Assembly: GCA_963783435.1 (NCBI GenBank)
Contig: CAWANQ010000004.1
Location: 148,560 to 212,559 of the forward strand
Origin: an uncultured Bacteroidota bacterium
Lineage (GTDB): Bacteria; Bacteroidota; Bacteroidia; Bacteroidales; GCA-2748055
Reading direction: 5' to 3'
DNA: 64,000 nucleotides
The position numbers and the translations under genes are program-made. Under the pieces are notes generated by a model that was not told where the DNA came from, ran no database searches, and saw only the letters and a program-made list of their open reading frames with translations. Positions 4,546 to 62,375 of this stretch are shown here, piece after piece. Within the stretch, counting starts at the first letter, position 1; each line of letters begins with the position of its first letter.

Positions 4546-6867
4546 TTATCTGAATCTCTCAGGAAAATCATCCCTGAGTCCCGCATCCCTTACATCAATT
4601 GACTTTATTCCCATTTTTAGTGCTGGTGATTCAGGCTTCAACCTGAAATCCCCATTTTCCCAATCAACAAACATAGGATCGGCATACAGGCCATTTCTGT
4701 CATGTCCCTCTGCTCTTAATCCGCTCAACGGGATGTCTTTACTACCTGGCGCTTCAGCATTGAAATAGAGGTTTTGATCTACGGTGCATTTATCAAAGTA
4801 CTCGTATAATCCAGGGGTCTCATCTCCATGACCTTCCCGGAGCTCAAATACATAGAATTGTTGCTTCGCTCCCGGTTCGAAAAGTATGTTGCGTTCGATA
4901 CGGGTTCCATCGACATAACGTCGGCCAACAATCATATATTGATTGGGTGTAACATCCACGATAAAATTATTGATCCAATAATTCTCATGTTTTACAAGAA
5001 CTCCGCAAAAGGTATTGGTCCTGAATATTACATTCTCTTCAATTAGGGTTCCCCGCTGATAGTCGTCAATACGAATGGCACTATGCAACATTGGGTTGTA
5101 GATATCATGTAGATAATTGCGGCGGATGATGTTCCCTTCTCCTGCCCCGCTGATATTTAACGCAGATCCATCTCCCATAATTTCTCCAACCCTGTATATC
5201 TCGTTGTATTCAACAATGTTATTACGGGTATGCAAATAAGGAGTGATCTCGGGCCATTCCCACACATCTACTCTGCCCCAGGGCATGCTGGCAGCTCTCT
5301 CTGTACAGGCTGCAGAGTCTTCTATTTCATACCAGCGAATGGAAGGGGCATTTTCCCGGAAGGGGGGATGTGCATGTTTCAGGAATTCATCATCAGGATC
5401 AAAGAATTGAGGACGAACTCCTGTCACACAGATTGCTTTTCGTGGCATATTGTGAATGGTATTATGCGCCACATGGTTTTCGCCACTTTGCCACAAAACA
5501 ATACCATGCGAGTGCCAATAGATCTCTCCGTTATGATGAATATGATTATTCACCACTTCGTTCTTCTTATTCACATCTTTTATGCCCGGGCCATATCCGA
5601 TTAAGAGGATTCCCGCACCACCCAGGTGATTGATTTCATTGTTATAGATTCTGTTATTCTGACAGTGCAGATCCAGGCGGATCGCGGAACCCCCACTATT
5701 ATAAAATTTACAGGCTTCAACCACACAGTTTTCAGCTCCCCGAAAACGCAGAAGTGCATCTGCTTTATCGATCATCTCCCAATCGTGCTGTATGGACTTA
5801 TCATCGATTTTTACCTTCCCCCTGTCGGCCTGGGTAAAGCCCAGGTCCTTGAAAACAATCCCTCGCACCGGTTTATCTTCAGGGCCTTCGAAGTCTATGG
5901 TCCCTTCAACACGGATGAGTTCCGTAAGGCATGGTGCAAAAATGTTATCACCTGGTTGGTCATCATAAGGCCAGAGGTAAAGTTTGCCTTTTTTACTGTC
6001 TAAGACCCATTCTCCCGGGCAATCAAGTGCTTCGAGGGTGTTCTCAACCCAAACAGCTGGTTCGCCCTCGGAGATTGCCTGGGGCCTTTGGTTTGTAATG
6101 GTATGTAATTTCCCATAGTTATGGATATCCGTTCTGGCCACTAAATTCTCCTCGTCAACAGACTCAAGAGAAAGTATCGTGATTGTAAAGTGCAATCGGC
6201 GCACTATAATTTCAACATCTTTCAGATTTGACCAATTTTTAATGGTGCCTTCTTCAAATTTAAATTCCCTGTGAGGATTCTTGATGGATTTATGCTCATC
6301 ATCTACTACATAGGCCTGGGATTGTGATCTGGGCAGTCTTTTGTCATGATCATATAAAGTACGAAATGGGCCGAGCCCTTCAGGAACGTCCGCTACCCAA
6401 ACTTTTGCCTTGGCCATCTCTGGTAATTCACTCGTTGATTCCTGGTATAGCTTCCAACCTCTCTCACTATATTGCTCCCATCCTTCAATTTTTACACCTG
6501 AACTAAAGATTGGTTCCTCACCCGGATAAGCAGCATATGTAATTGTATGACCTAGTGCGGCAGCATCCTTCAGGCCAAAAACAACTGTCTCTTTTAAAAA
6601 GTACCTTCCGCCTCTTATTAAAACAGAAATATCCCCTTTGCCTTCATCTTGCTTGAGTTTTAGCACTTCATCCCTGGCTTTTTCTAAAGTGGCAAATGGA
6701 CCATCGGAATTATCCTTATTGGGACTCTCGAGCTTACCCGACCAGGTATCATTCCCGTTTGTTGCAACATAAAAATCTGCATTCACTTCACTGCCTTCAA
6801 CAGGAGTATTTGCTTTCAGACTGAATAGTAAAATGAAGCAAGTAGATACTATTATTGTGTTTTTCAT
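4546..6867 (-). CDS. Secreted right-handed parallel beta-helix protein (pectate-lyase fold; candidate polysaccharide lyase/hydrolase)
   Basis: 773 aa with a signal peptide. N-terminal FYVATNGNDTWSGK..GPFATLEKA is typical of beta-helix enzymes. Repeated PbH1-like turns are present (NNRIYNNEINHLGGAGILL, VVNNHIHHNG, RNNIVEYNEIY, IIRRNYLHDI). Confidence 0.85.
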   Translation of the reverse strand: MKNTIIVSTCFILLFSLKANTPVEGSEVNADFYVATNGNDTWSGKLESPNKDNSDGPFATLEKARDEVLKLKQDEGKGDISVLIRGGRYFLKETVVFGLKDAAALGHTITYAAYPGEEPIFSSGVKIEGWEQYSERGWKLYQESTSELPEMAKAKVWVADVPEGLGPFRTLYDHDKRLPRSQSQAYVVDDEHKSIKNPHREFKFEEGTIKNWSNLKDVEIIVRRLHFTITILSLESVDEENLVARTDIHNYGKLHTITNQRPQAISEGEPAVWVENTLEALDCPGEWVLDSKKGKLYLWPYDDQPGDNIFAPCLTELIRVEGTIDFEGPEDKPVRGIVFKDLGFTQADRGKVKIDDKSIQHDWEMIDKADALLRFRGAENCVVEACKFYNSGGSAIRLDLHCQNNRIYNNEINHLGGAGILLIGYGPGIKDVNKKNEVVNNHIHHNGEIYWHSHGIVLWQSGENHVAHNTIHNMPRKAICVTGVRPQFFDPDDEFLKHAHPPFRENAPSIRWYEIEDSAACTERAASMPWGRVDVWEWPEITPYLHTRNNIVEYNEIYRVGEIMGDGSALNISGAGEGNIIRRNYLHDIYNPMLHSAIRIDDYQRGTLIEENVIFRTNTFCGVLVKHENYWINNFIVDVTPNQYMIVGRRYVDGTRIERNILFEPGAKQQFYVFELREGHGDETPGLYEYFDKCTVDQNLYFNAEAPGSKDIPLSGLRAEGHDRNGLYADPMFVDWENGDFRLKPESPALKMGIKSIDVRDAGLRDDFPERFR

Positions 6868-13374: not shown

Positions 13375-16300
13375 CTAGCGTTTAACAACCTTTCTTTTGG
13401 CCGATTGCCCCCCGGTTTTTACTTCGACAATGTAAATACCATTCGGGAAATCACTCATACTTACCAAACCTGTCGGATTCTTATCGGTGAGCAGTAATTC
13501 ACCCACCATACTATAGATCCGGATCTTTTCAATCCCTTCGCTAGCTTCAACTCTGATTTGATCTGTTGCAGGATTAGGATAGATCAATACAGCGCTATTT
13601 CCTTTATTCTCTGAAACTGATGTGTAGTCGGGAATTGTGCCAACTGGTGCTAATTCTTCAGGCTCGAAACCAATTTTCTCAACGGTAATTACCGTTTTAT
13701 TAATACTGCTGATTTCATAACCTCCCGTTACCGGGTATGTAACCGAGTCTGAGCCGAAAGTGCCCTGAATGTAGTATTCAAAGTCATATCCGGGATCTGC
13801 CAATGAAGCCGTCATAACGTAGCTGCTGTTATTTACAGGAGTAAGTGATATTGAAGAAAATGGGCCTGATGCACCTATTTTACGATAGTACATAGTTGGA
13901 TTTGCGACGGTCCCATTACCCATAAAGATTACTTTCTGCACAAAGTTTTCATTCTCATTTATCTGGGTAATTTCAGGGTAAGCCCGTACTGCATTATCTG
14001 CTTCAAATGTCACATCACGTTCTGTAATATCATACTCTCCTTTAAATAATCTGTCCCAGGTAGACTGTTGTAATTGGGCAATAACACCAAGCTCTGAGAC
14101 ATTTCTTACGCGATTTATTTCATGTTCCATTACCTTGGCCCAGGTTTTTATTATACTATCTTTTCTGGCAGGTGTGCGATCTTCCGCTCTATAAAAATAT
14201 TCATGAACTACTAATTTACTTAACTCAAGCTGAGCTTGAAAAAAATGATACCAATACAGGTATCGATCTATATTTCCCGTTCCAACAATATCGTCTTTGT
14301 ATGAACAAAACTGGGTATATACATACATGGCGTCAATAAAGGTCGGGTCTGTATAGTCTACAATATCACCGTCGTCCAACCAAAATTCAGTAATTGAACT
14401 TGGAAGCCATCTCGCCACCTTTGGAATACCCCCTTTTAATCCTCTCCGTATTTGATGAGATTCTCCTAATCTGTCGGCCATGGCCAGAAGCGACCCTATC
14501 TCATCTGATCTCTCAGGACCAAAATTAGCCTTTGCCCAGTCCTGATAATGTTTAGTAATCCAATTTACAAAACTGGGATCCTGACTCTCCAGCGGAGCAT
14601 CCCACTTATCAAAAAAACGGTATTTTTCAGCTCCCTCTGCAATACTAAGTAAATCACCATCCACGGTAGCCTTGTTATCCCAGGATAATTTTGCGTGGGC
14701 CAAAGAGGCTGGGGCAATAGAATTAACACGCCAATGTTTGGCAACCAGTGCCTGTGTTCCGCCAGCTCTCAAACCGGCCCCTACTTCAAACCAAGCATCC
14801 ATAGCTCTTAACTGAGGTTGTACAAGTCCCCAGTCCTCTTCGTACCAAACAGAAGACCACCCTTCACGACCAGCATCGATAACCGGCTTAATTCCCTGAG
14901 CATCATCCCATAATGTTCCAAATGGAACATCTAAGGGCAAATCGTCGTGAAATTCCAGTGAAGACCCGTATCCGACACTTCCAACCCTCCAGCCAAAGGT
15001 GGCCATTTTGATTGGCGTTTCCATTTTAGTCATAACTTCATTACAGTACCTGTAATCATCCGCAACAGCCTCAATCGCTTCATCATTTGTTCGATCACCC
15101 CCATAGGTCATCGTTTCGAAAGTCCAAAGCCAGAAGTAGTCCAACGGATGGGTACGCGCAATTCGGGTAAACAGCCCTTCATACATTCTTTTTGCAAACA
15201 CTTCGTTGGTATATCCTCTTGAGGTAGGCAAGGTTAATCCATGCACCTCTTGTGCCCGGTTTTGCACATCAACAGGTGTATAGTGAACTCTGTCTTGATA
15301 AACCTCTCTGTTATGTTTTGGAAGAAAACCCATTGGAGCAGTACTGCCCAATGCTGTTTTTACACCCAGTTGTTTGGCATGTGTGAACGATTCTCTTAAT
15401 AATTCCCCCACTTTATTGAAATTTGCCGCTTTCTCAGCTGGAGTAAGCGGTAGTTTAAAACCAATAGCCTCAGATGCTGCCTCATCATATGGAAACAGTC
15501 TATCCGCTCCATTGGTGAAATCGCTTGTTTTTATGGGTTCATTACTCCATGAATGATTCGCCCGGAATGTACTGGCCCAATAAGATTCATAAGCCGCCTC
15601 TGGCTTTACAGTTCCATCACTATTGACATCATCTCTATGACCAACCCATAAATGTGGTTCCGGCCCTTCCTTTGAATAATTTATAAATTCACCGTCACCG
15701 TCTACTCCAAGCGGCCCATATTGGTCATATTCACCATATACATGTAATCCGAAGAAGTTAAAACCCATTTTGGCTTGCTGTGAAATAAATGATTTATAAT
15801 CATTTGTCTCCCAAAGATCCGGACCAGCTAGAAAATTATGAAAAGGAAGACAACCACGCAATTCAAACCAGGGTTGGGCTTTTTCATCGAAATTGCCAAT
15901 ATCCAGCGGGAAGGTCAATTTCTGATCAGGAATAACATCTCCTGCTAGATTAAAATGACAACCAATAAGTTCGGCAAACCGGTATGCTGCATTCAAGGTA
16001 GTCAGCGTATCAGCACCGACGAGTACCAGTACATTTCTACCGTCTTTATTAATTGATTTAATTATATACCCATTGCGCTTATCAGAAGCTGGAGCATCCA
16101 CATTCCCATAATCCTGTTTTAGCTCAGTAATAATCTCGCGGCTGTTTCCAGAAACTACGATAACATCTCCCTCTGGTAAACTATTATATGTGTCTGCAGT
16201 AGCGATATCCGGAGCTGTTCCGGTACGAAGAAAGATATACCTCCTTAGCTCTTTGGCAGCCTGTAATTCAGTCTTTGATCCATCGCCCGGATAAACAATT

Positions 16301-16395
16301 GTTTGGGCTCCTAATTGAGAGGCAGAGAAGAGAATGATCATAACCAGCGAAAACTGTAATGCATGTATGGTCGGGAGGTGATGGTTCTTTTTCAT
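13375..16395 (-). CDS. Large secreted glycoside-hydrolase-like protein of unrecognised family, with a T9SS CTD
   Basis: 1006 aa with a signal peptide. The N-terminal module (LNAAYRFAELIGCHFNLAGDVIPDQ) resembles N-terminal domains of GH20/GH67/GH115-type enzymes. The central region has a TIM-barrel-like character (MGFNFFGLHVYGEYD, DYFWLWTFE, WYEEDWG). The C-terminus LIYPNPATDQIRVE..GIYIVEVK is a T9SS CTD. Confidence 0.8.
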   Translation of the reverse strand: MKKNHHLPTIHALQFSLVMIILFSASQLGAQTIVYPGDGSKTELQAAKELRRYIFLRTGTAPDIATADTYNSLPEGDVIVVSGNSREIITELKQDYGNVDAPASDKRNGYIIKSINKDGRNVLVLVGADTLTTLNAAYRFAELIGCHFNLAGDVIPDQKLTFPLDIGNFDEKAQPWFELRGCLPFHNFLAGPDLWETNDYKSFISQQAKMGFNFFGLHVYGEYDQYGPLGVDGDGEFINYSKEGPEPHLWVGHRDDVNSDGTVKPEAAYESYWASTFRANHSWSNEPIKTSDFTNGADRLFPYDEAASEAIGFKLPLTPAEKAANFNKVGELLRESFTHAKQLGVKTALGSTAPMGFLPKHNREVYQDRVHYTPVDVQNRAQEVHGLTLPTSRGYTNEVFAKRMYEGLFTRIARTHPLDYFWLWTFETMTYGGDRTNDEAIEAVADDYRYCNEVMTKMETPIKMATFGWRVGSVGYGSSLEFHDDLPLDVPFGTLWDDAQGIKPVIDAGREGWSSVWYEEDWGLVQPQLRAMDAWFEVGAGLRAGGTQALVAKHWRVNSIAPASLAHAKLSWDNKATVDGDLLSIAEGAEKYRFFDKWDAPLESQDPSFVNWITKHYQDWAKANFGPERSDEIGSLLAMADRLGESHQIRRGLKGGIPKVARWLPSSITEFWLDDGDIVDYTDPTFIDAMYVYTQFCSYKDDIVGTGNIDRYLYWYHFFQAQLELSKLVVHEYFYRAEDRTPARKDSIIKTWAKVMEHEINRVRNVSELGVIAQLQQSTWDRLFKGEYDITERDVTFEADNAVRAYPEITQINENENFVQKVIFMGNGTVANPTMYYRKIGASGPFSSISLTPVNNSSYVMTASLADPGYDFEYYIQGTFGSDSVTYPVTGGYEISSINKTVITVEKIGFEPEELAPVGTIPDYTSVSENKGNSAVLIYPNPATDQIRVEASEGIEKIRIYSMVGELLLTDKNPTGLVSMSDFPNGIYIVEVKTGGQSAKRKVVKR

Positions 16396-16610: not shown

Positions 16611-16689
16611 TAATACATAACCGGATTTGTTATATTGCCATTACCCAGGAATATTACATTTTGTTCAAAGGACTCATCTTCATAGATCT
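16611..16689. repeat. 79-bp perfect direct repeat, left copy
   Basis: Identical base-for-base to 19345..19423 (TAATACATAACCGGATTTG...CTTCATAGATCT). It overlaps the GH3 stop codon by 2 nt. Confidence 0.95.
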
Positions 16690-19119: not shown

Positions 19120-21855
19120 TCAGAAGTCGACATTCTCAACAGTAATGACGGTTTTATTAATGTTATCGCTATCATTTCCACCCGTTACCGGATAGCTTAC
19201 CGTTTCTCCGTCTATAGAACCTTGTATGTAATATTCAAAATCATAACCCGGATTATCCAGATTGGATTTTCATGACATGCAGTACTGCTTTCAACAGAAG
19301 TAAGCGCTGAGCTTGAGAACGAGCCGTCAGTTCCAATCTCCCGATAATACATAACCGGATTTGTTATATTGCCATTACCCAGGAATATTACATTTTGTTC
19401 AAAGGACTCATCTTCATAGATCTGCGATATTTCAGGCATGGCTCTAACTGCACTTTCCCCCTCATAGGAAGTATTCAAATCAGTAATTCCATAGCGATCT
19501 CTGCATATATTATCCCATGTAGCCTGCTGTAATTGAAGGATTACTCCTAATTCTGATATATTTCTTACGCGTTGTATTTCATGTTTCATAATTCTCCCCC
19601 AACAAGCTATCAGGCTGTCTTTCTCTACGCTGGTCATCCCATCTTTCTGCAGCTGCGCACGATGACAGGCGAATCTGCCCATTTCTATTTGTGATTGAAA
19701 AAAATGATACCAATACATATAGCGGTCTTTGTTCCCGGTACCCACAATGTCATTCTTATAGGAGCAGAACTGATTATATATATCAAAAGCTTCAGCAAAC
19801 TTGCCCGTAAATGTCGTTGGTTCACCTCTGTCCGGATCGCTTGCTCTTATTACACTTGGTGCGGGTTCCCATGTTGAGATTGTTGGTATGGCATTTGGTA
19901 CTCCTGCCATAGGAGGTTTTGGCTCTCCAGCTCTATCCATTGAAGCTAATAGGTTTCCAATCTCAACGGACTTTTCCGGTCCAAAATTAGTTTTTGCCCA
20001 ATTCTGATAAAATTCCGTTATCCATTTTACATACACTGAGTCTTGTTCCTCGGTATTTCTCTGGAAGATATCTACTTCTGGAAAATGCTTGTTCTTCATC
20101 GCAATTCATTTGAAACAATCTCCCTGTTTTCCCAAACTAATTGTGCATGAGCTGCAGATGCAGGTGCTACTGAGTTAATACGCCAATGTTTGGCTATCAG
20201 AGCCTGCACACCTCCGATATCTAATCCAGCTCCTACTTCATTCCAGATTGTTGTAACTCTAAACTGAGGTTGGATCATACCCCAATCTTCTTCATACCAG
20301 CACGAAGACCATGCCTCACGACCCGCATCAATAACCGGCTTCAATCCTTCAGCCCTGTCCCAGAGTGTGCCAAATGGAACATCCAAAGGTAAATCATCAT
20401 GAAACTCTAATGGGCCCTTTCCTTTTGGTTGTTTAGTTCCCACAGTTCCCACTCTCCATCCAAATGTGGCTAATTTGAAGGGAGTATTCATCTCATTCAT
20501 TACTTCATTGCAATATCTGTAATCATCTGCAACGGCTTCAATTTGCTGTTTTGAGAGTCTGTGACCGAGATAGGTCCAGGTTTCGTAGGTCCAAAGCCAG
20601 AAATAATCCAGAGGGTGAGTCTTCATTATACGTGTAAATACTCCCTCATATAGTGCCTTTGTGAAAGCCTCGTTTACTGAACCTCTTTCTGTTGGTAAGG
20701 TAAAGCCATGAACATCTCTCATTCTGCTTTGTACATCCGGTGGGCAAGAGTGGATCCAGTCTGTTTCAACTAAGTGCTCTGGAATTACCTGGCTCAAAGC
20801 CCATCGGAGCTTCTGTCCCAATGGCCGTTTTAACACCCAGCTGGCGGGCATGTGAAAACGCATCCTTAAACATAAATCCCACATTGTTGAAGTTTGCTGC
20901 TTTTTCTGAAGGAGTTTCGGGCTCTTTTGAACCTATTGCTTCGGAAGCAACATAATCATTGACAAATAGTTTGTCGGCCCCACTGGTAAATTCCTTTGTT
21001 GTTACAGGAGCATACCCCCATATGCCTTCATTAGGATTACCCGCATAGAAATCACCCTTACGAAAAGAACTTGCCCAGTATGATTTATAAGCAGCCTCTT
21101 CTTTAACCGTGCCATCATCATTCAAATCATTTTTATGACCTATCCAGATGGAGGGTTCCGGTCCTTCCTGTGAGCCTTTAAATCCATTCTGGTTGTAATA
21201 ATGGAGACCAAAGAAATTAAAACCCATCTTCGCCTGTTGCGTAATAAATGATTTATAATCTTCAGTATTCCACAAATCAGGTCCGGTTGGAAAATCATGA
21301 AAGGGCAGACTACCTCGCAATTCAAACAAGGGTTGTGATTTCTCATCATACCCGCTCAAGGGAATTGGATAGCTTAACTTTTGATCAGGAATAACATCTC
21401 CTGCCAGATTAAAATGACAGCCTAATAATTCTGCAAATCTATAGGCCGCATTCAGGGTGGTTATTGTATCCGCTCCTGTAATGACCAGAATATCTCTTCC
21501 ATCATTTTTATTCACCGATTTTATCAGATAGCCCTTCCTGTTATCACTATCCGGAGCATCTACATTTCCGTATTCCTGCTTAAGTTCTGTAATAATATCC
21601 CGACTATCTTCCGAAACGATGATTACATCACCTTCAGGTAAACTGGCATATTGGTCTAGCAGTAGCGATCTCCGGAGCAGTGCCTGTGCGGAGGAAAATG
21701 TATCTTCTTACTTCTTTTGCTGCCTGGATTTCGGTGATCGATCCATCGCCAGGATAAAGCACCGTTTGGGCATTTAAATCACATGCTGAGATGAAAATAA
21801 ATACCAGAAACAACTTTATTCCATTAAATGCTGAGATCCGGTTGCTTGTTTTCAT
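19120..21855 (-). pseudogene. Pseudogenised tandem paralog of the 1006-aa hydrolase-like gene
   Basis: ORF fragments 21634..21942, 20766..21515, 20096..20884 and 19212..20099, plus an unannotated tail, are colinear with ORF 13375..16395. Examples: AQTVLYPGDGS../AQTIVYPGDGS..; TTLNAAYRFAELLGCHFNLAGDVIPDQKL; THPLDYFWLWTYE; VRNISELGVILQLQQATWD. They sit in at least 4 different frames. The first shift is an extra A at ~21655-21660 (GCT-A-GAC). The gene ends VITVENVDF* at 19120 and lacks the CTD. Confidence 0.85.
19345..19423. repeat. 79-bp perfect direct repeat, right copy (inside the pseudogene)
   Basis: Identical to 16611..16689. Here it encodes IYEDESFEQNVIFLGNGNITNPVMYY of the pseudogene. 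Confidence 0.95.
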
Positions 21856-32703: not shown

Positions 32704-33029
32704 GGCGGGGCGGCAGCCCCCCCCGAACACCTGCCGCCCCGCCTGCCCAGCGCCGCAGGGCGCAAAAAGGCTTCAACTTCCAGGGAACTCGCTCTAATTC
32801 TGGGCACTTCTCTTTGAAGATCAGGCTGAAGCCTCCAAAAAACCAATCCGATCAACCTTTTTCGAGAGAGAAGAAGGTTGATCCGGATGGTTACAGGGCG
32901 GTTTCGGCCGGAACTTCCTTGAAATTGGTTTGGATCCCGGGAAAGATTCCTTTCAAAAAAATAACGACAAGAGCATTCCGCGCTTGCCCAGACACCTCAA
33001 GCACCCCGTAAATTTCCTGATTTCCTGCG
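32704..33029 (-). repeat. GC-rich structured interspersed repeat, copy A (full length, hairpin-terminated)
   Basis: ~85% identical (by eye) to the reverse complement of 61511..61750; its hairpin end matches the reverse complement of 62240..62375. It ends in a 13-bp GC hairpin GGCGGGGCGGCAG-N14-CTGCCGCCCCGCC (32704..32743), followed on the minus strand by TTATTCAAA. It carries a 65-nt extra hairpin (~32840..32900) that copy B lacks. Confidence 0.8.
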
Positions 33030-53290: not shown

Positions 53291-53370
53291 AGACTATTGT
53301 TTATTCGTTTTTTCAATGGGTAATGCACTCAGCACGATTCCCTGTATGGTCCTTTAAAACCAGAGAAAAA

Positions 53371-53398
53371 GGAGCCATGACTAAATAGCCATGGCTCC
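53371..53398 (-). terminator. Intrinsic terminator downstream of the tandem beta-helix gene
   Basis: GGAGCCATG-N10-CATGGCTCC (9-bp GC-rich stem). On the minus strand it is followed directly by TTTTTCTCTGGTTTT. It lies between the stop at 53447 and the MFS start at 53290. Confidence 0.6.
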
Positions 53399-53446
53399 CA
53401 GATTTTCATGTACCAGACTATCAAAAATGATTCTTTCGCTTCTGAT

Positions 53447-56400
53447 TTATTTTGTCAGGATCATTTTTGAAGTGCTGATCTGGCCTTCATTCATAAAGCT
53501 ACAATAGTAGATTCCGGCAGGCATATGGCTTGCATCCCAGATTACTGTATGCAATCCTTCACTTCGTTCCTCGTCTACCAATACCTGAACAAGGCTCCCG
53601 ATTGAGTTATAAACCTCTAGCGTTACATGTGAATGATTTTCCATCGAGAACTCAATCTGGACTGCAGATTTAAATGGATTCGGATAAGTCTTTAATCCGG
53701 GATTTCCGGAGGCTGTCAGGTTTGCATCTTTATTTGAAACTTCCGTTTCATAGGCCTGAAGAATGGCACTCAATGAAGCTTCAGAATCAAAACCATCAAT
53801 TTCACTGGTCCAGTGCAATGCTCCGATCGAATATCCATCGCTCTCTGACTTAAAGCTTGCTCCGATAGAAAAATCTTCTATCATGTCTGAGAATAGGGTA
53901 ATCCCATCGCCATCTTCCGTTTCTACACCCGGTATGGTGGTCGGATCAAAATCGCCAAAATAATAGCCGCTGAAATCCGGAGTTCCTGTTTCTTCCGCAA
54001 CTTCATACATTTTACGCATCCAGATAGCAAGTTGTTCGGCTGCAGCTTCTGAGATCCCCTCTGTTGCCAGCTGTGGATCCTGGCCAAGAATGTTATTCTC
54101 TTCCTTGATTCCGCTGTAGTTGGCAAAAAAGGCATTTTCTCTTTCTGCCATCCAGTTTGCGGGCACATTTACGGTATGAGGGCCGGCTGTTCCAAACCAG
54201 TTAATGTATGATACAGGATTGTCGGCTATGGCATTATATTCTCCATTGTAATACTTATCCAATGTGGACTCATTGAAATAGATATTGTCGGCCACATACG
54301 TTTTATAGTTGTTTATATCATTATATGGAGCTAACAGGGCCGTTGAATCGGCATTCATGGCATATCCGGGAAGAGCTTTCGTCCCTATCTTGATATCAAG
54401 GGTATCAAAAGGTATAATAGGTGTAGATACTTTATCCGGAGCCGCCTGAATAATGTTAAAATCTTCGCCGATCATGTTGCAGTTATAAAACACATTGTTG
54501 GTAATATATGACTCGTAATTATAATGGTTCAGCGTTAAAAATGTACTTGTATTGATAAATGTGTTATGGTTAATGAGGGCATATTTCACAAATTGCTGTT
54601 GTAAGAGCAACACGCATTGTCCGTTGGATACTGTATTATTTTCAAATACCAGTTTTTCTACAGGGACATACTTGGCATCTATGACATTCCCGGCCCACAA
54701 TTGACCTCCATTAAAGAAGTCCCTGAAATAATTGTTCCTCATTTCTATTTCAAGGCCCTGAGGCACATCCTGCAGTTTGAAACCTCTCTGTGCAAATTCG
54801 ATCAGGCAATCCTCAACAGTCAGCTTCCTGTCATTCCCTATTAATATAAACAAGTAGTTTTTCCAATAGCCGCCTTCGTCATTCCGGCCTTGTATATGGA
54901 GATTTTTTAACTCCAGGCTGGAAGTTATCCTGTTTTGCCCCGGTTCAACACCATTATCTACCACAGGAATAATAACGGGTTTCTTGCCCCCTTCAGCTCC
55001 CACTATTTTTATGGTGCCGCCATCGTTTTGTACATTAATGGCTGACTTGACAAAGTGAAAGCCTTCCTCTAATTTGTAAACCCTGTCAGGATGAATACGG
55101 TTACCGTCTCCATCCTTGTCTCCGTTAATGGTAGTCTCCAGAAGCCCTGCATTTTCCGGGCCGCTAGCAATAACGATGGTGTCCTCCTGGCTTGCCTGGG
55201 TGCTGTAGGCCAGAAGAATCGCATTCAATGAAGTTTCAGAATCAAAACCATCAATTTCACTGGTCCAGTGCAATGCACCGATCGAGAATCCGTCGCTCTC
55301 TGACTTAAAGCTTGCTCCGATGGAAAAATCTTCGATCAGGTCTGAGAATTGGGTAATCCCGTCGCCATCTTCCGTTTCTACGCCCGGTATGGTGGTCGGA
55401 TCAAAATCGCCAAAATAGTAGCCACTGAAATCCGGAGTCCCTGTTTCTTCCGCAACTTCGTACATTTTACGCATCCAGATAGCAAGTTGTTCGGCTGCAG
55501 CTTCTGAGATCCCCTCTGTTGCCAGCTGTGGATCCTGGCCAAGAATGTTATTCTCTTCCTTGATTCCGCTGTAGTTGGCAAAAAAGGCATTTTCTCTTTC
55601 TGCCATCCAGTTTGCGGGCACATTTACGGTATGAGGGCCGGCTGTTCCAAACCAGTTAATGTATGATACAGGATTGTCGGCTATGGCATTATATTCTCCA
55701 TTGTAATACTTATCCAATGTGGACTCATTGAAATAGATATTGTCGGCCACATACGTTTTATAGTTGTTTATATCATTATATGGAGCTAACAGGGCCGTTG
55801 AATCGGCATTCATGGCATATCCGGGAAGAGCTTTCGTCCCTATCTTGATATCAAGGGTATCAAAAGGTATAATAGGTGTAGATACTTTATCCGGAGCCGC
55901 CTGAATAATGTTAAAATCTTCGCCGATCATGTTGCAGTTATAAAACACATTATTGGTAATATATGACTCGTAATTATAATGGTTCAGCGTTAAAAATGTA
56001 CTTGTATTGATAAATGTGTTATGGTTAATGAGGGCATATTTCACAAATTGCTGTTGTAAGAGCAACACGCATTGTCCGTTGGATACTGTATTATTTTCAA
56101 ATACCAGTTTTTCTACAGGGACATACTTGGCATCTATGACATTCCCGGCCCACAGTTGACCTCCATTAAAGAAGTCCCTGAAATAATTGTTCCTCATTTC
56201 TATTTCAAGGCCCTGAGGCACATCCTGCAGTTTGAAACCTCTCTGTGCAAATTCGATCAGGCAATCCTCAACAGTCAGCTTCCTGTCATTCCCTATTAAT
56301 ATAAACAAGTAGTTTTTCCAATAGCCGCCTTCGTCATTCCGGCCTTGTATATGGAGATTTTTTAACTCCAGGCTGGAAGTTATCCTGTTTTGCCCCGGTT

Positions 56401-56725
56401 CAACACCATTATCTACCACAGGAATAATAACGGGTTTCTTGCCCCCTTCAGCTCCCACTATTTTTATGGTGCCGCCATCGTTTTGTACATTAATGGCTGA
56501 CTTGACAAAGTGAAAGCCTTCCTCTAATTTGTAAACCCTGTCAGGATGAATACGGTTACCGTCTCCATCCTTGTCTCCGTTAATGGTAGTCTCCAGAAGC
56601 CCTGCATTTTCCGGGCCGCTGGCAATAACGATGGTGTCCTGGTCTGCTGGCACTTGCGCGTAAGTTATTGTGGTTGTTATCGCCACAATAAAAGCCACAA
56701 TCAAAAGTAAAGTTCTCTTTTTCAT
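53447..56725 (-). CDS. T9SS-secreted protein made of two near-identical ~485-aa beta-helix-like modules
   Basis: 1092 aa with a signal peptide. Each module carries beta-helix-like turns (NLHIQGRND, VEDCLIEF, IEMRNNYFRD, VFENNTVSNG, LINHNTFINT, ITNNVFYNC). The C-terminus KTYPNPFKSAVQIEF..GIYYCSF..ILTK is a T9SS CTD. Confidence 0.88.
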   Translation of the reverse strand: MKKRTLLLIVAFIVAITTTITYAQVPADQDTIVIASGPENAGLLETTINGDKDGDGNRIHPDRVYKLEEGFHFVKSAINVQNDGGTIKIVGAEGGKKPVIIPVVDNGVEPGQNRITSSLELKNLHIQGRNDEGGYWKNYLFILIGNDRKLTVEDCLIEFAQRGFKLQDVPQGLEIEMRNNYFRDFFNGGQLWAGNVIDAKYVPVEKLVFENNTVSNGQCVLLLQQQFVKYALINHNTFINTSTFLTLNHYNYESYITNNVFYNCNMIGEDFNIIQAAPDKVSTPIIPFDTLDIKIGTKALPGYAMNADSTALLAPYNDINNYKTYVADNIYFNESTLDKYYNGEYNAIADNPVSYINWFGTAGPHTVNVPANWMAERENAFFANYSGIKEENNILGQDPQLATEGISEAAAEQLAIWMRKMYEVAEETGTPDFSGYYFGDFDPTTIPGVETEDGDGITQFSDLIEDFSIGASFKSESDGFSIGALHWTSEIDGFDSETSLNAILLAYSTQASQEDTIVIASGPENAGLLETTINGDKDGDGNRIHPDRVYKLEEGFHFVKSAINVQNDGGTIKIVGAEGGKKPVIIPVVDNGVEPGQNRITSSLELKNLHIQGRNDEGGYWKNYLFILIGNDRKLTVEDCLIEFAQRGFKLQDVPQGLEIEMRNNYFRDFFNGGQLWAGNVIDAKYVPVEKLVFENNTVSNGQCVLLLQQQFVKYALINHNTFINTSTFLTLNHYNYESYITNNVFYNCNMIGEDFNIIQAAPDKVSTPIIPFDTLDIKIGTKALPGYAMNADSTALLAPYNDINNYKTYVADNIYFNESTLDKYYNGEYNAIADNPVSYINWFGTAGPHTVNVPANWMAERENAFFANYSGIKEENNILGQDPQLATEGISEAAAEQLAIWMRKMYEVAEETGTPDFSGYYFGDFDPTTIPGVETEDGDGITLFSDMIEDFSIGASFKSESDGYSIGALHWTSEIDGFDSEASLSAILQAYETEVSNKDANLTASGNPGLKTYPNPFKSAVQIEFSMENHSHVTLEVYNSIGSLVQVLVDEERSEGLHTVIWDASHMPAGIYYCSFMNEGQISTSKMILTK
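53746..56655 (-). repeat. In-frame tandem duplication, 2 x 1455 bp
   Basis: Period 1455 bp; track ORFs 54617..54844 and 56072..56299 encode identical peptides, and 53923..54168 and 55378..55623 near-identical ones. I compared the two copies line by line. There are only 3 differences (all synonymous) across 54006..55185 vs 55461..56640, but ~18 differences across the 255 bp 53751..54005 vs 55206..55460. Confidence 0.95.
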
Positions 56726-56808: not shown

Positions 56809-59800
56809 TTAAAACCGATAACCCGCTCCCAATTGAAATCTGCTGCCGTAATATTGACTGCTTACCGGCAACCGCACATCTCCATAATAAATTTTATAGT
56901 CTTCGTCAATATGATTGGTCAGGTTGGTCGCATTAAAATATATGTACAGACCTTTGTAAACCCGCATTTTCAAACTAATATCCAGCAACTGGAATTTGTC
57001 CGCATAATTATCTGCAAAAGAGTATTTAGCATCCAGTCCGCTGAGTGTTTTTCCTTGAAAACGGTAAGACACCCTGGCACTAAATCCTTTGTAATCCCAT
57101 CCCAGTATAACATTCGTAATAAAGCTGGGCTGAGATACCATCTTCCCTTCCCTGGTATTGTACTGATACCCGATGATATCTTTTGGCAGGAAACCAGAAC
57201 TGTCAACGCCTACCACTACATTTTCAAAATATGGGTACTTCGTTCTGGAATTAATAAATGTTAGATTCACATCTAATACAAACCCCCTTAGCCATTCATT
57301 ACCCAGACTCCAAAGATTCCTTTGATAGGACAACTCCACTCCATAGTATTCTGCTTTTTCAGGATTGTTAATGGGTATTCCTGTACTGCTCGAGTTCGTC
57401 AAATCATCTACAGGGTAGAAATCAGTTCCTGGCAGTGATCCTACAAATCCATCCGGGGCCTCCACAATTCTATCGTTTCGAAGCGGAAAATAGTTGGGAA
57501 GATGAGATATAAAATGATCTATTTGCTTATAAAAAGGATTGACAGTCAAAAGTCCAAATTTACTGTTGTACACCTCTAAAGAGATGTCATAATTCCAGGC
57601 AGTGGATGGTTCCAGAAAAGGATTGGCTGATGTAAATACGGTTTTAGCCTGATCCGAATCGATAATGGTTTTAGGAGATAACTGGAGAAAGCCCGGGCGG
57701 GAAACACTCTTGTAAACAGCTCCCCTCAAAGCGACAGATTCACCAAATTGATATTTTGCGTTTACAGATGGGAAAAATAAAAGATTATCACGTTCTACCG
57801 ATACCGAATCAGGAACCCCGGAAAGTCCATTTGCGTTCACACTATTCGTTACTATGGCAAAGGCATCATATTGGGTATTGACTTTTTCCATGCGTATTCC
57901 AGGCACCAACAGCAGCTTCCCAATATTTAATTCAGCCATGATATAGGCTGCTATTTGTTCTTCCCTATTGTTATAGTCGTTCGTATAACTTTCGAAGCCC
58001 CTGGCATTATATAAAAGAGGGTAACTGGCATAGAGCTGGGATTGCATATCTTTCATCAAACCTATATCCGGCGACCAATTCAGGGCATATTTCCCATCGA
58101 GAAATTCCCCCGGATCATAATCCGGATCAACAAAGTTTGTTGCAGTTATCCCGGTTTGATCCCCGTCAGGCCAATCTACCCAGGGGAATAGAGATAGATA
58201 TGTGGATTTTGCTCCCTGTCCCTTGCCAGCACGGTAATCCACATAAATAGCATCTGAATTGCTAACTCTTTCCAATAAATGGTATTTCCCTCCCACTGAT
58301 AAAACGCCATCTGTTCTTAGTTTTACAAGATTAAAGGGAATGCGCCATTCTAAATCCAGATCATAGTTCTTATCTGTCAATTCTGAATTGTTGAGATCAT
58401 CTGTTTGAAGTTTGTTAGCAGGAATGCTGGTTTCTCCATAGAGGTCCAGCACCTCTTCCGGCTCCCTGAATATTAACCAGTCCTGATCTATATCCTCCCC
58501 TGTTGTACTGACTTCTCTGAAAGGAAAAAGATGAGTAATGCCATCCGTGTTGACATGGGTATAAGACAGACTCAAGTTCAGTTCCGTACCTAGAAATCGC
58601 AATTTGTTCTCTAATAAATGGGTGGAATTTATGCGCTCATTTTCCCCGGATGAAGCATTCAGTCTGAATGGATATGTTGGATCTGAAAAGTTATGGTTCT
58701 CCTGTCTGTTAATAACATCATCTGTACTTCTATTGATAAGATTCAGGAAAGCCACATCATAAAAATCACTCTTAAAATCCAGCACCATGCTTACACCAAT
58801 ACGCTCACGGTTGGTGTTTACCAGGGATAAGCTTGCGCTTTGTGTCCTTGATATAAAAGATTCTTCACCTGTTAAATTGCCTGTGGAATCCAGCTCCTGC
58901 TGTATAATGGGACCTGAATACCCGGCTCCGAAACGTTGGGAAGAAAGCTGTTTCCTCTCATAAGTTGCCTGGGCTTTAATCCCGAATCTGTTCTGAAGAA
59001 AACGCGTACTCCCTCCAAGTGATGTCTTGGAATCGCCAATATTTGAGAACAAATTGCTATATCCGACTTCTGTCATAGCGTTTAAACCAGGTTTATTGTT
59101 CGCTGTTGCCAACCTCAGGTCAACCGTTCCTCCAATAGCACCTGCATCCATATCCGCGCGCAGTGTTTTAGAAACCTCTACACCAGATAGCATCTCACTT
59201 TGTATCATGCTCAAGTCGGCACTTCTATCTCCAGCATTTGTGGAGGCCATTTTTACTCCCGCAATGGTTACATTATTCTGAGCAGACGACACCCCCCTGA
59301 TTACGATCTTATTTGCTTCACCAGAAGATCTTTGCAGAGAAATACCCGGGAGTCTACCGATTGCCTCTGCAGCGTTTGCATCTGGTAATTCCTCCATTTT
59401 TTCTGCAGATACCACATTGACAATTTTATTGGAGGCCACCTGTTCCCTGATCGCCGAATTCTGCCCCAAAACCTGTACAGTTACAGTAACCTCCTCAAGT
59501 ACTTCGCCAACAATCAGTTCAAAGTTCAGAGTTACCGTTTGATTGCTATTGACCACAACCTGCTTCTCCAGGGAGTTATACCCGATAAAGGAGGCAACCA
59601 GGGTATATGTTCCAGGTCTCACGCTGATCTCATACTTCCCTTCCAGATCGGTGGAGGTCCCAATGGTGGTGCCCGGAATAGAGACATTGGCAAACTGCAG
59701 GGGCAGTTTCGTTGAAGCATCCGATACCTTGCCGATAATTGCTCCATTTGACTGGGCCCATCCGGTGGCGGCAAAGTACAAAACGAATATGGCCATCACA

Positions 59801-59880
59801 GCCAGTGATTTTAATACTTCTGCTCCTTTTGTCCGGGACTTTTCTTTAAGCTGATAGTCCTTTTTCGTGAATCCAGTCAT
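56809..59880 (-). CDS. TonB-dependent outer-membrane receptor with a carboxypeptidase-regulatory-like N-terminal domain; no adjacent SusD-like gene
   Basis: 1023 aa with a signal peptide. N-terminal IIGKVSDASTKLPLQFANVSIPGT..GKYEISVRPGTYTLVASFIGY. Plug region (IGRLPGISLQRSSGE..IVIRG). Long beta-barrel ending ..QLGAGYRF. Confidence 0.9.
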   Translation of the reverse strand: MTGFTKKDYQLKEKSRTKGAEVLKSLAVMAIFVLYFAATGWAQSNGAIIGKVSDASTKLPLQFANVSIPGTTIGTSTDLEGKYEISVRPGTYTLVASFIGYNSLEKQVVVNSNQTVTLNFELIVGEVLEEVTVTVQVLGQNSAIREQVASNKIVNVVSAEKMEELPDANAAEAIGRLPGISLQRSSGEANKIVIRGVSSAQNNVTIAGVKMASTNAGDRSADLSMIQSEMLSGVEVSKTLRADMDAGAIGGTVDLRLATANNKPGLNAMTEVGYSNLFSNIGDSKTSLGGSTRFLQNRFGIKAQATYERKQLSSQRFGAGYSGPIIQQELDSTGNLTGEESFISRTQSASLSLVNTNRERIGVSMVLDFKSDFYDVAFLNLINRSTDDVINRQENHNFSDPTYPFRLNASSGENERINSTHLLENKLRFLGTELNLSLSYTHVNTDGITHLFPFREVSTTGEDIDQDWLIFREPEEVLDLYGETSIPANKLQTDDLNNSELTDKNYDLDLEWRIPFNLVKLRTDGVLSVGGKYHLLERVSNSDAIYVDYRAGKGQGAKSTYLSLFPWVDWPDGDQTGITATNFVDPDYDPGEFLDGKYALNWSPDIGLMKDMQSQLYASYPLLYNARGFESYTNDYNNREEQIAAYIMAELNIGKLLLVPGIRMEKVNTQYDAFAIVTNSVNANGLSGVPDSVSVERDNLLFFPSVNAKYQFGESVALRGAVYKSVSRPGFLQLSPKTIIDSDQAKTVFTSANPFLEPSTAWNYDISLEVYNSKFGLLTVNPFYKQIDHFISHLPNYFPLRNDRIVEAPDGFVGSLPGTDFYPVDDLTNSSSTGIPINNPEKAEYYGVELSYQRNLWSLGNEWLRGFVLDVNLTFINSRTKYPYFENVVVGVDSSGFLPKDIIGYQYNTREGKMVSQPSFITNVILGWDYKGFSARVSYRFQGKTLSGLDAKYSFADNYADKFQLLDISLKMRVYKGLYIYFNATNLTNHIDEDYKIYYGDVRLPVSSQYYGSRFQLGAGYRF

Positions 59881-61510: not shown

Positions 61511-61750
61511 GCGAAGAAATCAAGAAATTTACGGAGTGCTTTGAGGTGCCTGGATAAGCCCGGAATACTCTTGTTGTTCTATTTTTTGAAAGGGATCTTT
61601 CCCGGGATCCAAACCATTTTCCAGGAAGATACGGCCGAAATAGGCATCAGTCTGATCTTCAAAGAGAAGCGCCCGGAATTAGAGCGAGTTCCCTGGAAGT
61701 TGAAGCCTTTCTGCGCCCTGCGGTGCAGGACGTGCGGGGCGGCAGCCCCC
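61511..61750 (+). repeat. GC-rich structured repeat, copy B (3'-truncated within the terminal hairpin; lacks the 65-nt insert)
   Basis: Reverse-complement match to 32760..33029 (GAAATCAAGAAATTTACGGAGTGC.., GGGATCCAAACC, CTTCAAAGAGAAGCGCCCGGAATTAGAGCGAGTTCCCTGGAAGTTGAAGCC). It stops after the left arm GCGGGGCGGCAGCCCCC. Confidence 0.8.
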
Positions 61751-62239: not shown

Positions 62240-62375
62240 GGAGTTGGTTTTGGCCGGATATTCAAAGAGAATCGCCCGATTCGGTCGCGATCCTCTTGAA
62301 GTTGAAGCTTTTTTGCGCCCTGCTCCGCAGGGCGGGCGGGGCGGCAGGTGTTCGGGGGGGGGCTGCCGCCCCGCC
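62240..62375 (+). repeat. GC-rich structured repeat, copy C (5'-truncated, intact terminal hairpin)
   Basis: TTCAAAGAGAATCGCCCG..CTTGAAGTTGAAGC..GCGCCCTGC..GCAGGGCG, then the hairpin GGCGGGGCGGCAG-N15-CTGCCGCCCCGCC (62335..62375), followed by TCTAATGCTTTATTT. It is the reverse complement of the copy A end. Confidence 0.8.

Follow-up and report, generated by a model that had tools for sequence, protein, structure and literature searches.

The window studied here, a 64,000-nucleotide (nt) stretch of contig CAWANQ010000004.1 from an uncultured Bacteroidota bacterium (assembly GCA_963783435.1), contains a gene at positions 53447-56725, minus strand, that encodes two nearly identical beta-helix modules in tandem. 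The two copies are almost indistinguishable over most of their length and clearly diverged at one end. We consider it likely that the duplication is old, and that repeated recombination between the copies has homogenised their cores and changed the number of modules.

Mosaic divergence between the two modules

We compared the modules by self-alignment at a fixed offset of exactly 1455 nt. The alignment was free of indels and, together with a single open reading frame (ORF) of 1092 residues (aa), confirmed the in-frame 1455-bp tandem duplication of a 485-aa module that an initial annotation of this DNA had proposed. The homologous stretch covers 1436 nt (lower copy 53750-55185, upper copy 55205-56640), and the copies are separated by a non-homologous junction of 19 nt (55186-55204). 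They differ at 22 of the 1436 positions (98.5% identity), and these differences are very unevenly distributed. The core (54006-55185, 1180 nt) holds only three of them (0.25%), at 54497, 54700, and 55166, all synonymous, the same number as had been read by eye. The tail (53750-54005, 256 nt), encoding the last ~85 residues of the module, holds 19 (7.4%), where ~18 (~7%) had been counted; 13 are synonymous and 6 non-synonymous (Nei-Gojobori), the latter giving Q/L459, L/M463, F/Y480, T/A498, N/S501, and L/Q505, and the tail peptides quoted in the initial annotation were exact. A further replacement, S/E508 (53747-53749), lies in the junction, outside the homologous stretch. The four positions originally listed for the core all exist and are all synonymous, but 54005 is better placed in the tail cluster. 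Tandem Repeats Finder did not report the gene, its longest period being 500 and the repeat unit 1455 nt.

The features of the gene and its immediate surroundings, all on the minus strand, are as follows; WIN denotes the window gene, L-numbers the loci of relatives, and P-numbers the proteins or clusters of relatives.

53447-56725, minus: whole gene, 1092 aa, a single ORF with signal peptide, module 1, junction, module 2, linker, and type IX secretion system (T9SS) C-terminal sorting domain
56657-56725, minus: signal-peptide-like N-terminus, aa 1-23, MKKRTLLLIVAFIVAITTTITYA then Q (read off the translation by eye)
55461-56640, minus: module 1 core, which forms the beta-helix body; its 1180 nt match those of the module 2 core at 99.75% identity (self-comparison, predicted structure)
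55205-55460, minus: module 1 tail (t1), a disordered loop and a small C-terminal cap subdomain, 7.4% off t2; it has derived states common to the single-module allele L032
55186-55204, minus: duplication junction, peptide ..AYSTQ then ASQED.., in register homologous to neither flank, with the same breakpoint in L003 and L001
54006-55185, minus: module 2 core, 1180 nt (self-comparison)
53750-54005, minus: module 2 tail (t2), with states mostly of ancestral type, as in L003, L013, and L029
53459-53686, minus: T9SS type A C-terminal sorting domain, aa 1014-1089 of 1092 (PF18962, TIGR04183)
53370-53399, minus: terminator-like hairpin, a 13-bp stem then a T run, 48 nt past the stop codon (consensus scan only)
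56809-59880, minus: TonB-dependent receptor gene of the TonB-Xanth-Caul subfamily, 83 nt upstream of the beta-helix gene (Pfam, NCBIfam)

The sorting domain scores above the curated cut-offs both for PF18962 (E 2.2e-10, 41.1 bits vs a cut-off of 27, Pfam) and for TIGR04183 (32 bits vs 23, NCBIfam). With this domain at its extreme C-terminus and an N-terminal signal peptide, the two-module protein has the marks of a T9SS type A cargo, as predicted from sequence; these export signals are compatible with surface anchoring or release. Two alternative-frame ORFs of 81 aa (53923-54168 and 55378-55623, minus strand) are duplicated images of each other within the modules and show nothing gene-like.

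Clustering of the differences is not due to chance. A change-point was located after module coordinate 1184 (window 54005/54006), with a maximum chi-square of 71.6 that was reached by 1 of 20,000 permutations, bearing out the sharply mosaic divergence that had been described. A post-hoc Fisher test gave p = 3e-12, and a Sawyer-type run test on WIN gave p = 0.003. The contrast was also clear in synonymous sites: core paralogues show a synonymous divergence (dS) of 0.012 and a non-synonymous divergence (dN) of 0, and tail paralogues a dS of 0.278 and a dN of 0.030 (Nei-Gojobori), i.e. a 23-fold lower dS in the core. The tail dN/dS of ~0.11 indicates purifying selection. At 54497 and 54700 it is the base in module 2 that relatives lack or rarely have, in keeping with mutations that arose once the copies had recently been homogenised; position 55166 could not be polarised.

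Age of the duplication and probable homogenisation of the cores

Orthologues provide a calibration for these values. Core dS between WIN and L003, its nearest two-module relative, is 0.26-0.27, rising to 0.39-0.41 against L013 and 0.60-0.64 against L001. Synonymous core sites evolve freely between species, and selection is not the cause of core identity, because the same core codons diverge synonymously between orthologues. On this scale the tail paralogues are about as old as the split between WIN and L003, and the cores coalesce roughly 20 times more recently. Between lineages, synonymous divergence is far greater in the tail (module coordinates 1185-1440) than in the core, with tail dS of 1.3-2.2 vs core dS of 0.6 for WIN and L001, and 0.8-1.5 vs 0.4 for WIN and L013. 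Small-sample saturation, differing recombination histories, or exchange of cores between lineages are possible reasons for the high tail values.

WIN, L003, and L001 have a common breakpoint, AY(S/D)T-x then ASQ, despite the cores of L003 and L001 being 7-15% off WIN in DNA, and the duplication is therefore old. The cores nonetheless group strictly by genome, with p-distances of 0.002-0.006 within a genome vs 0.072-0.167 between genomes. All three of the marks sought in tandem paralogues under concerted evolution were thus found here: a duplication that predates the split with copies grouping by genome, clustered differences, and homogenised synonymous sites. The initial annotation had suggested homogenisation of the core on an older repeat, and this suggestion is supported by the dS contrast, the free divergence of cores between orthologues, the common junction, and the grouping by genome.

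Sites at which copies in the same position agree across genomes are termed positional. In the tails of WIN and L001 we counted 5 of them and 52 genome-specific ones, with no cross sites. We considered the F/Y codon among them (module coordinates 1358/1359) as a position-specific adaptation and dropped this idea, since the single-module relative L029 has F too. A separate two-module lineage, L002/L014, contains 34 positional sites, of which 26 lie within 147 nt of one end of the module or the other, together with 89 genome-specific sites, mostly central, and 8 cross sites. Such a pattern is the mark of an old duplication with a central part that became homogeneous only once the species had separated. 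In L003, sequence of the module 2 type has replaced the module 1 tail, and the two tails are 2.0% apart. Sawyer-type run tests gave p < 1e-4 for L001, p = 1e-4 for L014, and p <= 0.002 for all three pairs of modules in L004; for L002 the same test was not significant. The distribution of differences in these and other lineages is listed here.

L001: core with 0 differences over ~1120 nt; ~26 in the tail
L009: core with 0 differences over ~1127 nt; 14 in the head and 19 in the tail
L015 (633-kb contig): core with 0 differences over 1379 nt; differences proximal to the junction only
L014: core with few differences; U-shaped profile with both edges diverged
L002: differences throughout, in core and edges alike

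The tracts of identity end at module coordinates of about 1125, 1185, 1239, 1407, and 1430 depending on the lineage. These varied boundaries look like stochastic tract ends and not like a fixed functional border, and we rejected a fixed, structure-defined conversion boundary on the grounds of this variation.

The history that we propose starts with an in-frame tandem duplication that would have copied the 485-residue unit in an ancestor common to relatives now up to about 15% diverged in DNA. Later homologous recombination, which we infer to be of RecA type, would have repeatedly overwritten one copy with the other, through non-reciprocal gene conversion or, equivalently, double unequal sister-strand exchange; both would lead to the same sequence outcome, and our data cannot separate them. 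In the WIN genome the last event would have covered module coordinates of about 5 to 1184, recently (dS 0.012), and spared the final 256 nt of both modules. Tracts may stop short of module ends through loss of flanking homology, followed by suppression by accumulated mismatches. Crossover between misaligned copies would remove or add whole modules, giving rise to alleles with one, two, or three of them. The process is classical concerted evolution, which is known, and not a new mechanism.

Module number and rival explanations

A search of 5.8 billion proteins returned 173 relatives, nearly all of them single-module T9SS proteins of ~605 aa from marine Bacteroidota, with source names that include Mariniflexile, Sediminicola, Crocinitomicaceae, and Cryomorphaceae. 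Nine clusters were multi-module, with two modules each except for one with three. The variation in copy number that had been predicted between strains (1, 2, or 3 modules) is borne out by the available assemblies: the family includes all three forms, and module number varies even among members of one 90%-identity cluster. Six such clusters each hold members of ~606 aa and ~1090 aa on contigs of tens of kilobases, and the P0001 cluster contains complete three-module proteins of 1583 aa on several contigs. The three-module gene of L004 (6001-10753) is interrupted by a frameshift towards the end of module 3, to be explained most likely by a sequencing error or by recent pseudogene formation; in P0163 and other members of its cluster the full 1583 aa are intact. 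In a genome scan for close relatives the best match was 65% identical, and the sole cultured match was Portibacter lacus, with a single module. A metagenome scan gave three loci, one of which (L031) breaks off within the repeat and is uninformative.

A deletion-type allele adds to this picture. L032 has a single module, with a core 4.7% off WIN, and is nested among two-module relatives. Its proximal tail (coordinates 1185-1400) shows 8 differences in 216 nt to module 1 vs 18 in 216 to module 2, is of the module 1 type at 12 of 14 diagnostic sites, and has five derived states common only to module 1. Its distal tail, which runs on into the sorting domain, shows instead 1 difference in 40 nt to module 2 vs 4 in 40 to module 1, and this switch is supported by a Fisher test (p = 0.017). 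L032 looks like the product expected of a crossover within the tail between misaligned modules of a two-module ancestor, i.e.: a deletion, and it would show that the t1 haplotype is older than the split between WIN and L032.

Five types of junction were distinguished among multi-module genes.

Type A: WIN, L003, L001 (AY(S/D)T-x then ASQ)
Type B: P0005, P0006, P0007, L015
Type C: P0004, L014
Type D: P0001
Type E: P0009

This variety suggests several independent duplications. For type A, we compared the breakpoint context in the window (55186-55204 with 56650-56665 and 53735-53750) and its equivalents in L001. A CCA (Pro) codon is found in both parental flanks in L001 and in the signal-peptide flank of the window gene, the context being V-P-A before module 1 in the window gene and T-P-T after module 2 in L001. 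This suggests that the founding type A duplication took place at a microhomology of 3 nt; for the type B junction, GA(T/A)GTTA may have played that part.

Other explanations have to be weighed against an old duplication with recurrent recombination. One could argue that no recombination took place, and that the core is held by strong constraint with a tail under relaxed or diversifying selection. The boundary does lie near a structural border, at the end of the beta-helix body (helix 385-398) and before a low-confidence loop and cap, but the contrast sits in synonymous sites, and the same core sites reach a dS of about 0.26-0.64 between orthologues, which rules out a conserved overlapping element too. 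Moreover, the tail is itself under purifying selection and the position of the boundary varies between lineages, and we give this explanation next to no credence. We also judge it improbable that the duplication is as young as the core and that one module received its divergent tail, by homologous recombination, from the allele of another strain. The presence of the t1 haplotype in another lineage, L032, speaks for such an import, as does the similarity of t2 to L003 tails (6 differences in 216 nt), closer than that of cores (7-8%): tail segments appear to move or coalesce differently. On the other hand, the junction common to WIN, L003, and L001 places the duplication well before core coalescence, L032 as a t1/t2 deletion product would require a two-module ancestor that already had both tails, and the same contrast between core and edge recurs in lineages with other junctions.

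An assembly artefact, in which the assembler created the second copy or the core identity from a genome with one module (or some other number), is in our opinion very unlikely. A 1.2-kb near-perfect repeat is indeed hard to resolve from short reads, L031 ends within the repeat, and the L003 scaffold has a gap (10 N with duplicated flanks) inside module 1, which accounts for an apparent frameshift there that might be taken for the mark of a pseudogene. Against this, relatives with 81-93% protein identity, assembled independently, show the junction peptide and the breakpoint again, and the window gene has an intact frame with tails that are 7.4% apart in a pattern of purifying selection. The window belongs to a 1.15-Mb contig, and its protein is identical to P0193, found with its neighbour genes on a public contig of 1,148,419 nt. 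Likewise, the two-module P0007 gene is identical in three independent assemblies, the P0009 protein occurs on four contigs, and L015 is on a 633-kb contig. Conversion-like tracts are also found in L014 and L004, where copies are otherwise well diverged.

Several points nevertheless weigh against an old duplication homogenised by recombination, or against parts of it. The copy number and the three core differences of the window are taken from the assembly and are provisional. Short-read metagenome assemblies can collapse near-identical cores and traverse them twice, the identity of the perfect cores in L001, L003, and L005-L011 may therefore be too high, and what looks like a single-module contig could in some cases be a two-module gene that was collapsed. 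Between the tails of WIN and L001 the positional signal amounts to no more than 5 sites, 2 of which (the F/Y codon) occur also in the single-module relative L029. As t2 is closer to L003 tails (2.8%, coordinates 1185-1400) than the cores are, exchange between strains may have shaped the tails too. In WIN, conversion spared only the 3' edge of the module, and a pure edge effect predicts that both edges would be spared. Lastly, the function discussed below is read from fold and synteny alone, and the structural matches behind it are weak.

Fold, genomic context, and significance

The description of the gene as a beta-helix gene agrees with a Pfam Beta_helix match (E 1.6e-8) and with an AlphaFold2 model of a single module (47-sequence alignment; predicted local distance difference test (pLDDT) 87.6, predicted template modelling score (pTM) 0.91), a right-handed parallel beta-helix with repeated short strands. 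In this model the body would end at helix 385-398 and be followed by a low-confidence loop (~410-430) and, at 430-487, by a C-terminal cap subdomain that is predicted well; loop and cap together correspond to the divergent tail. The full-length model was poor (pLDDT 52.8, pTM 0.34, 7-sequence alignment) and the packing of the modules was not readable. Foldseek against the PDB gave weak matches, generic for beta-helices: the best was PL6 7dmk (E = 1.1e-3, TMq 0.33), and others included pectate lyases and chondroitinase B, all with a template modelling (TM) score of at most 0.35 and 10-16% identity. We made no enzyme-family assignment for the module from matches of this kind. A profile search of the PDB matched the sorting domain only, with no solved relative of the module by sequence.

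Gene order is kept at every sufficiently flanked locus: LacI, MFS, TonB-dependent receptor, beta-helix gene, (MFS), ROK kinase, SIS isomerase, SASA-like esterase or sulfatases, and GH2. A TonB-Xanth-Caul-type receptor is found directly upstream of the beta-helix T9SS gene at all of these loci (the window, L002, L004, and L006-L013), across sources named as Flavobacteriaceae, Lewinellaceae, Saprospiraceae, Cyclobacteriaceae, Crocinitomicaceae, and Schleiferiaceae. Receptor and secreted partner appear to form a conserved pair. The receptor is not of the SusC type, and no SusD was noted among the genes annotated at these loci. In the window, positions 1-51000 form one large polysaccharide-utilisation-type region with at least nine S1-type sulfatases, a GH29 fucosidase, a GH141-like beta-helix protein (4546-6867), GH31, GH3, GH2, and a SASA-like esterase, a gene content consistent with a sulfated, fucose-containing algal glycan as target. 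A search of the literature on fucoidan and on T9SS gave nothing specific to the beta-helix family. From fold and synteny, we propose that the protein may be a secreted or surface module that binds or cleaves glycans and feeds the adjacent TonB-dependent receptor; the number of modules would then set the valency or reach of the glycan module.

Other repeats are found within the window. A second T9SS-tailed gene (13375-16395, 1006 aa) has blocks of 73-78% nucleotide identity ~5455 nt away (19212-21515), where three separate ORFs (295, 262, and 249 aa) are left of the reading frame; this region, flanking the GH3 gene, looks like a fragmented paralogue. An exact 79-nt repeat (16611-16689 and 19345-19423) has a 70% copy at 13886-13964. 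Finally, an intergenic element of ~104 nt has one copy near 32.7 kb and two in the gap at 61.0-62.5 kb, with inverted copies 90-91% complementary (32717-32834 vs 61642-61745 and 62295-62361), and may be a small repeated or mobile element.

The closest named class is that of Periscope Proteins, in which a functional domain is borne on a passive, rod-like stalk made of separate repeat domains of ~50-165 residues, sometimes in more than 40 copies, and homologous recombination between repeats is the proposed driver of changes in repeat number (PMC8201768, PMC9704523). The window protein may resemble them as a single-chain exported protein, with a signal-peptide-like N-terminus and a C-terminal sorting domain that would fit surface anchoring or release. 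Its repeats have the very high DNA identity that defines the class (98.5% overall, 99.75% in the core), and repeat number varies between close strains, with the reservation that some single-module contigs could be assembly collapses. Small stalk repeats, in contrast, were not found: the repeat is a whole 485-aa beta-helix, the only recognisable functional domain, present in 1-3 copies and without a separate N-terminal effector domain. Periscope Proteins are moreover a wall-anchored Gram-positive system, unlike the T9SS-bearing Bacteroidota host of the window gene.

Concerted evolution with less homogenised edge repeats is familiar from ribosomal DNA, from spidroin and filaggrin repeats, and from bacterial tuf and ribosomal RNA genes. 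As in those cases, the copies described here are more alike within a genome than orthologues are despite an older duplication, with mosaic tracts, homogenised synonymous sites, and spared edges. Unlike in classical cases, there are only two (or three) very long in-frame units in one coding sequence, and the history is unusually legible, with the unconverted tail, the common junction, and the deletion-product allele all kept.

Right-handed parallel beta-helix enzymes include PL6 alginate lyases, chondroitinase B, PL1 pectate lyases, and GH28-type enzymes. The module resembles these lyases and hydrolases in its predicted fold and in conserved NN motifs on successive rungs, similar to an asparagine ladder, and its gene lies in a locus rich in sulfatases and glycosidases beside a carbohydrate-type TonB-dependent receptor. 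It differs from the solved lyases in having no sequence match and the weak structural matches given above. The two-domain PL6 enzymes BcAlyPL6 (7dmk) and AlyGC (5gkd) have two beta-helix domains each, ancient and dissimilar, unlike the two beta-helices of the window protein, which are 98.5% identical in DNA.

A bolder idea, which we put forward tentatively and hold to be rather unlikely, is that the module is a previously undescribed glycan-capturing or -cleaving unit that partners a SusD-less receptor, and that its copy number (1-3) is a fast, reversible, recombination-driven switch with which marine Bacteroidota populations tune the valency or reach of substrate capture. If this were true, the Periscope principle would apply to a working domain as well as to passive stalks, and the fact that duplications arose repeatedly and independently (five junction types) would speak for selection in favour of the switch.

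The gene is a natural record of intragenic recombination: the tail would date the duplication, the junction points to a common origin, the core to recent homogenisation, and a relative seems to keep the deletion product. For the family, a T9SS cargo widespread in polysaccharide loci of marine Bacteroidota, short-read metagenomes probably misreport copy number. With its natural series of one-, two-, and three-module forms, the beta-helix family is a defined target in the search for new carbohydrate-active families.

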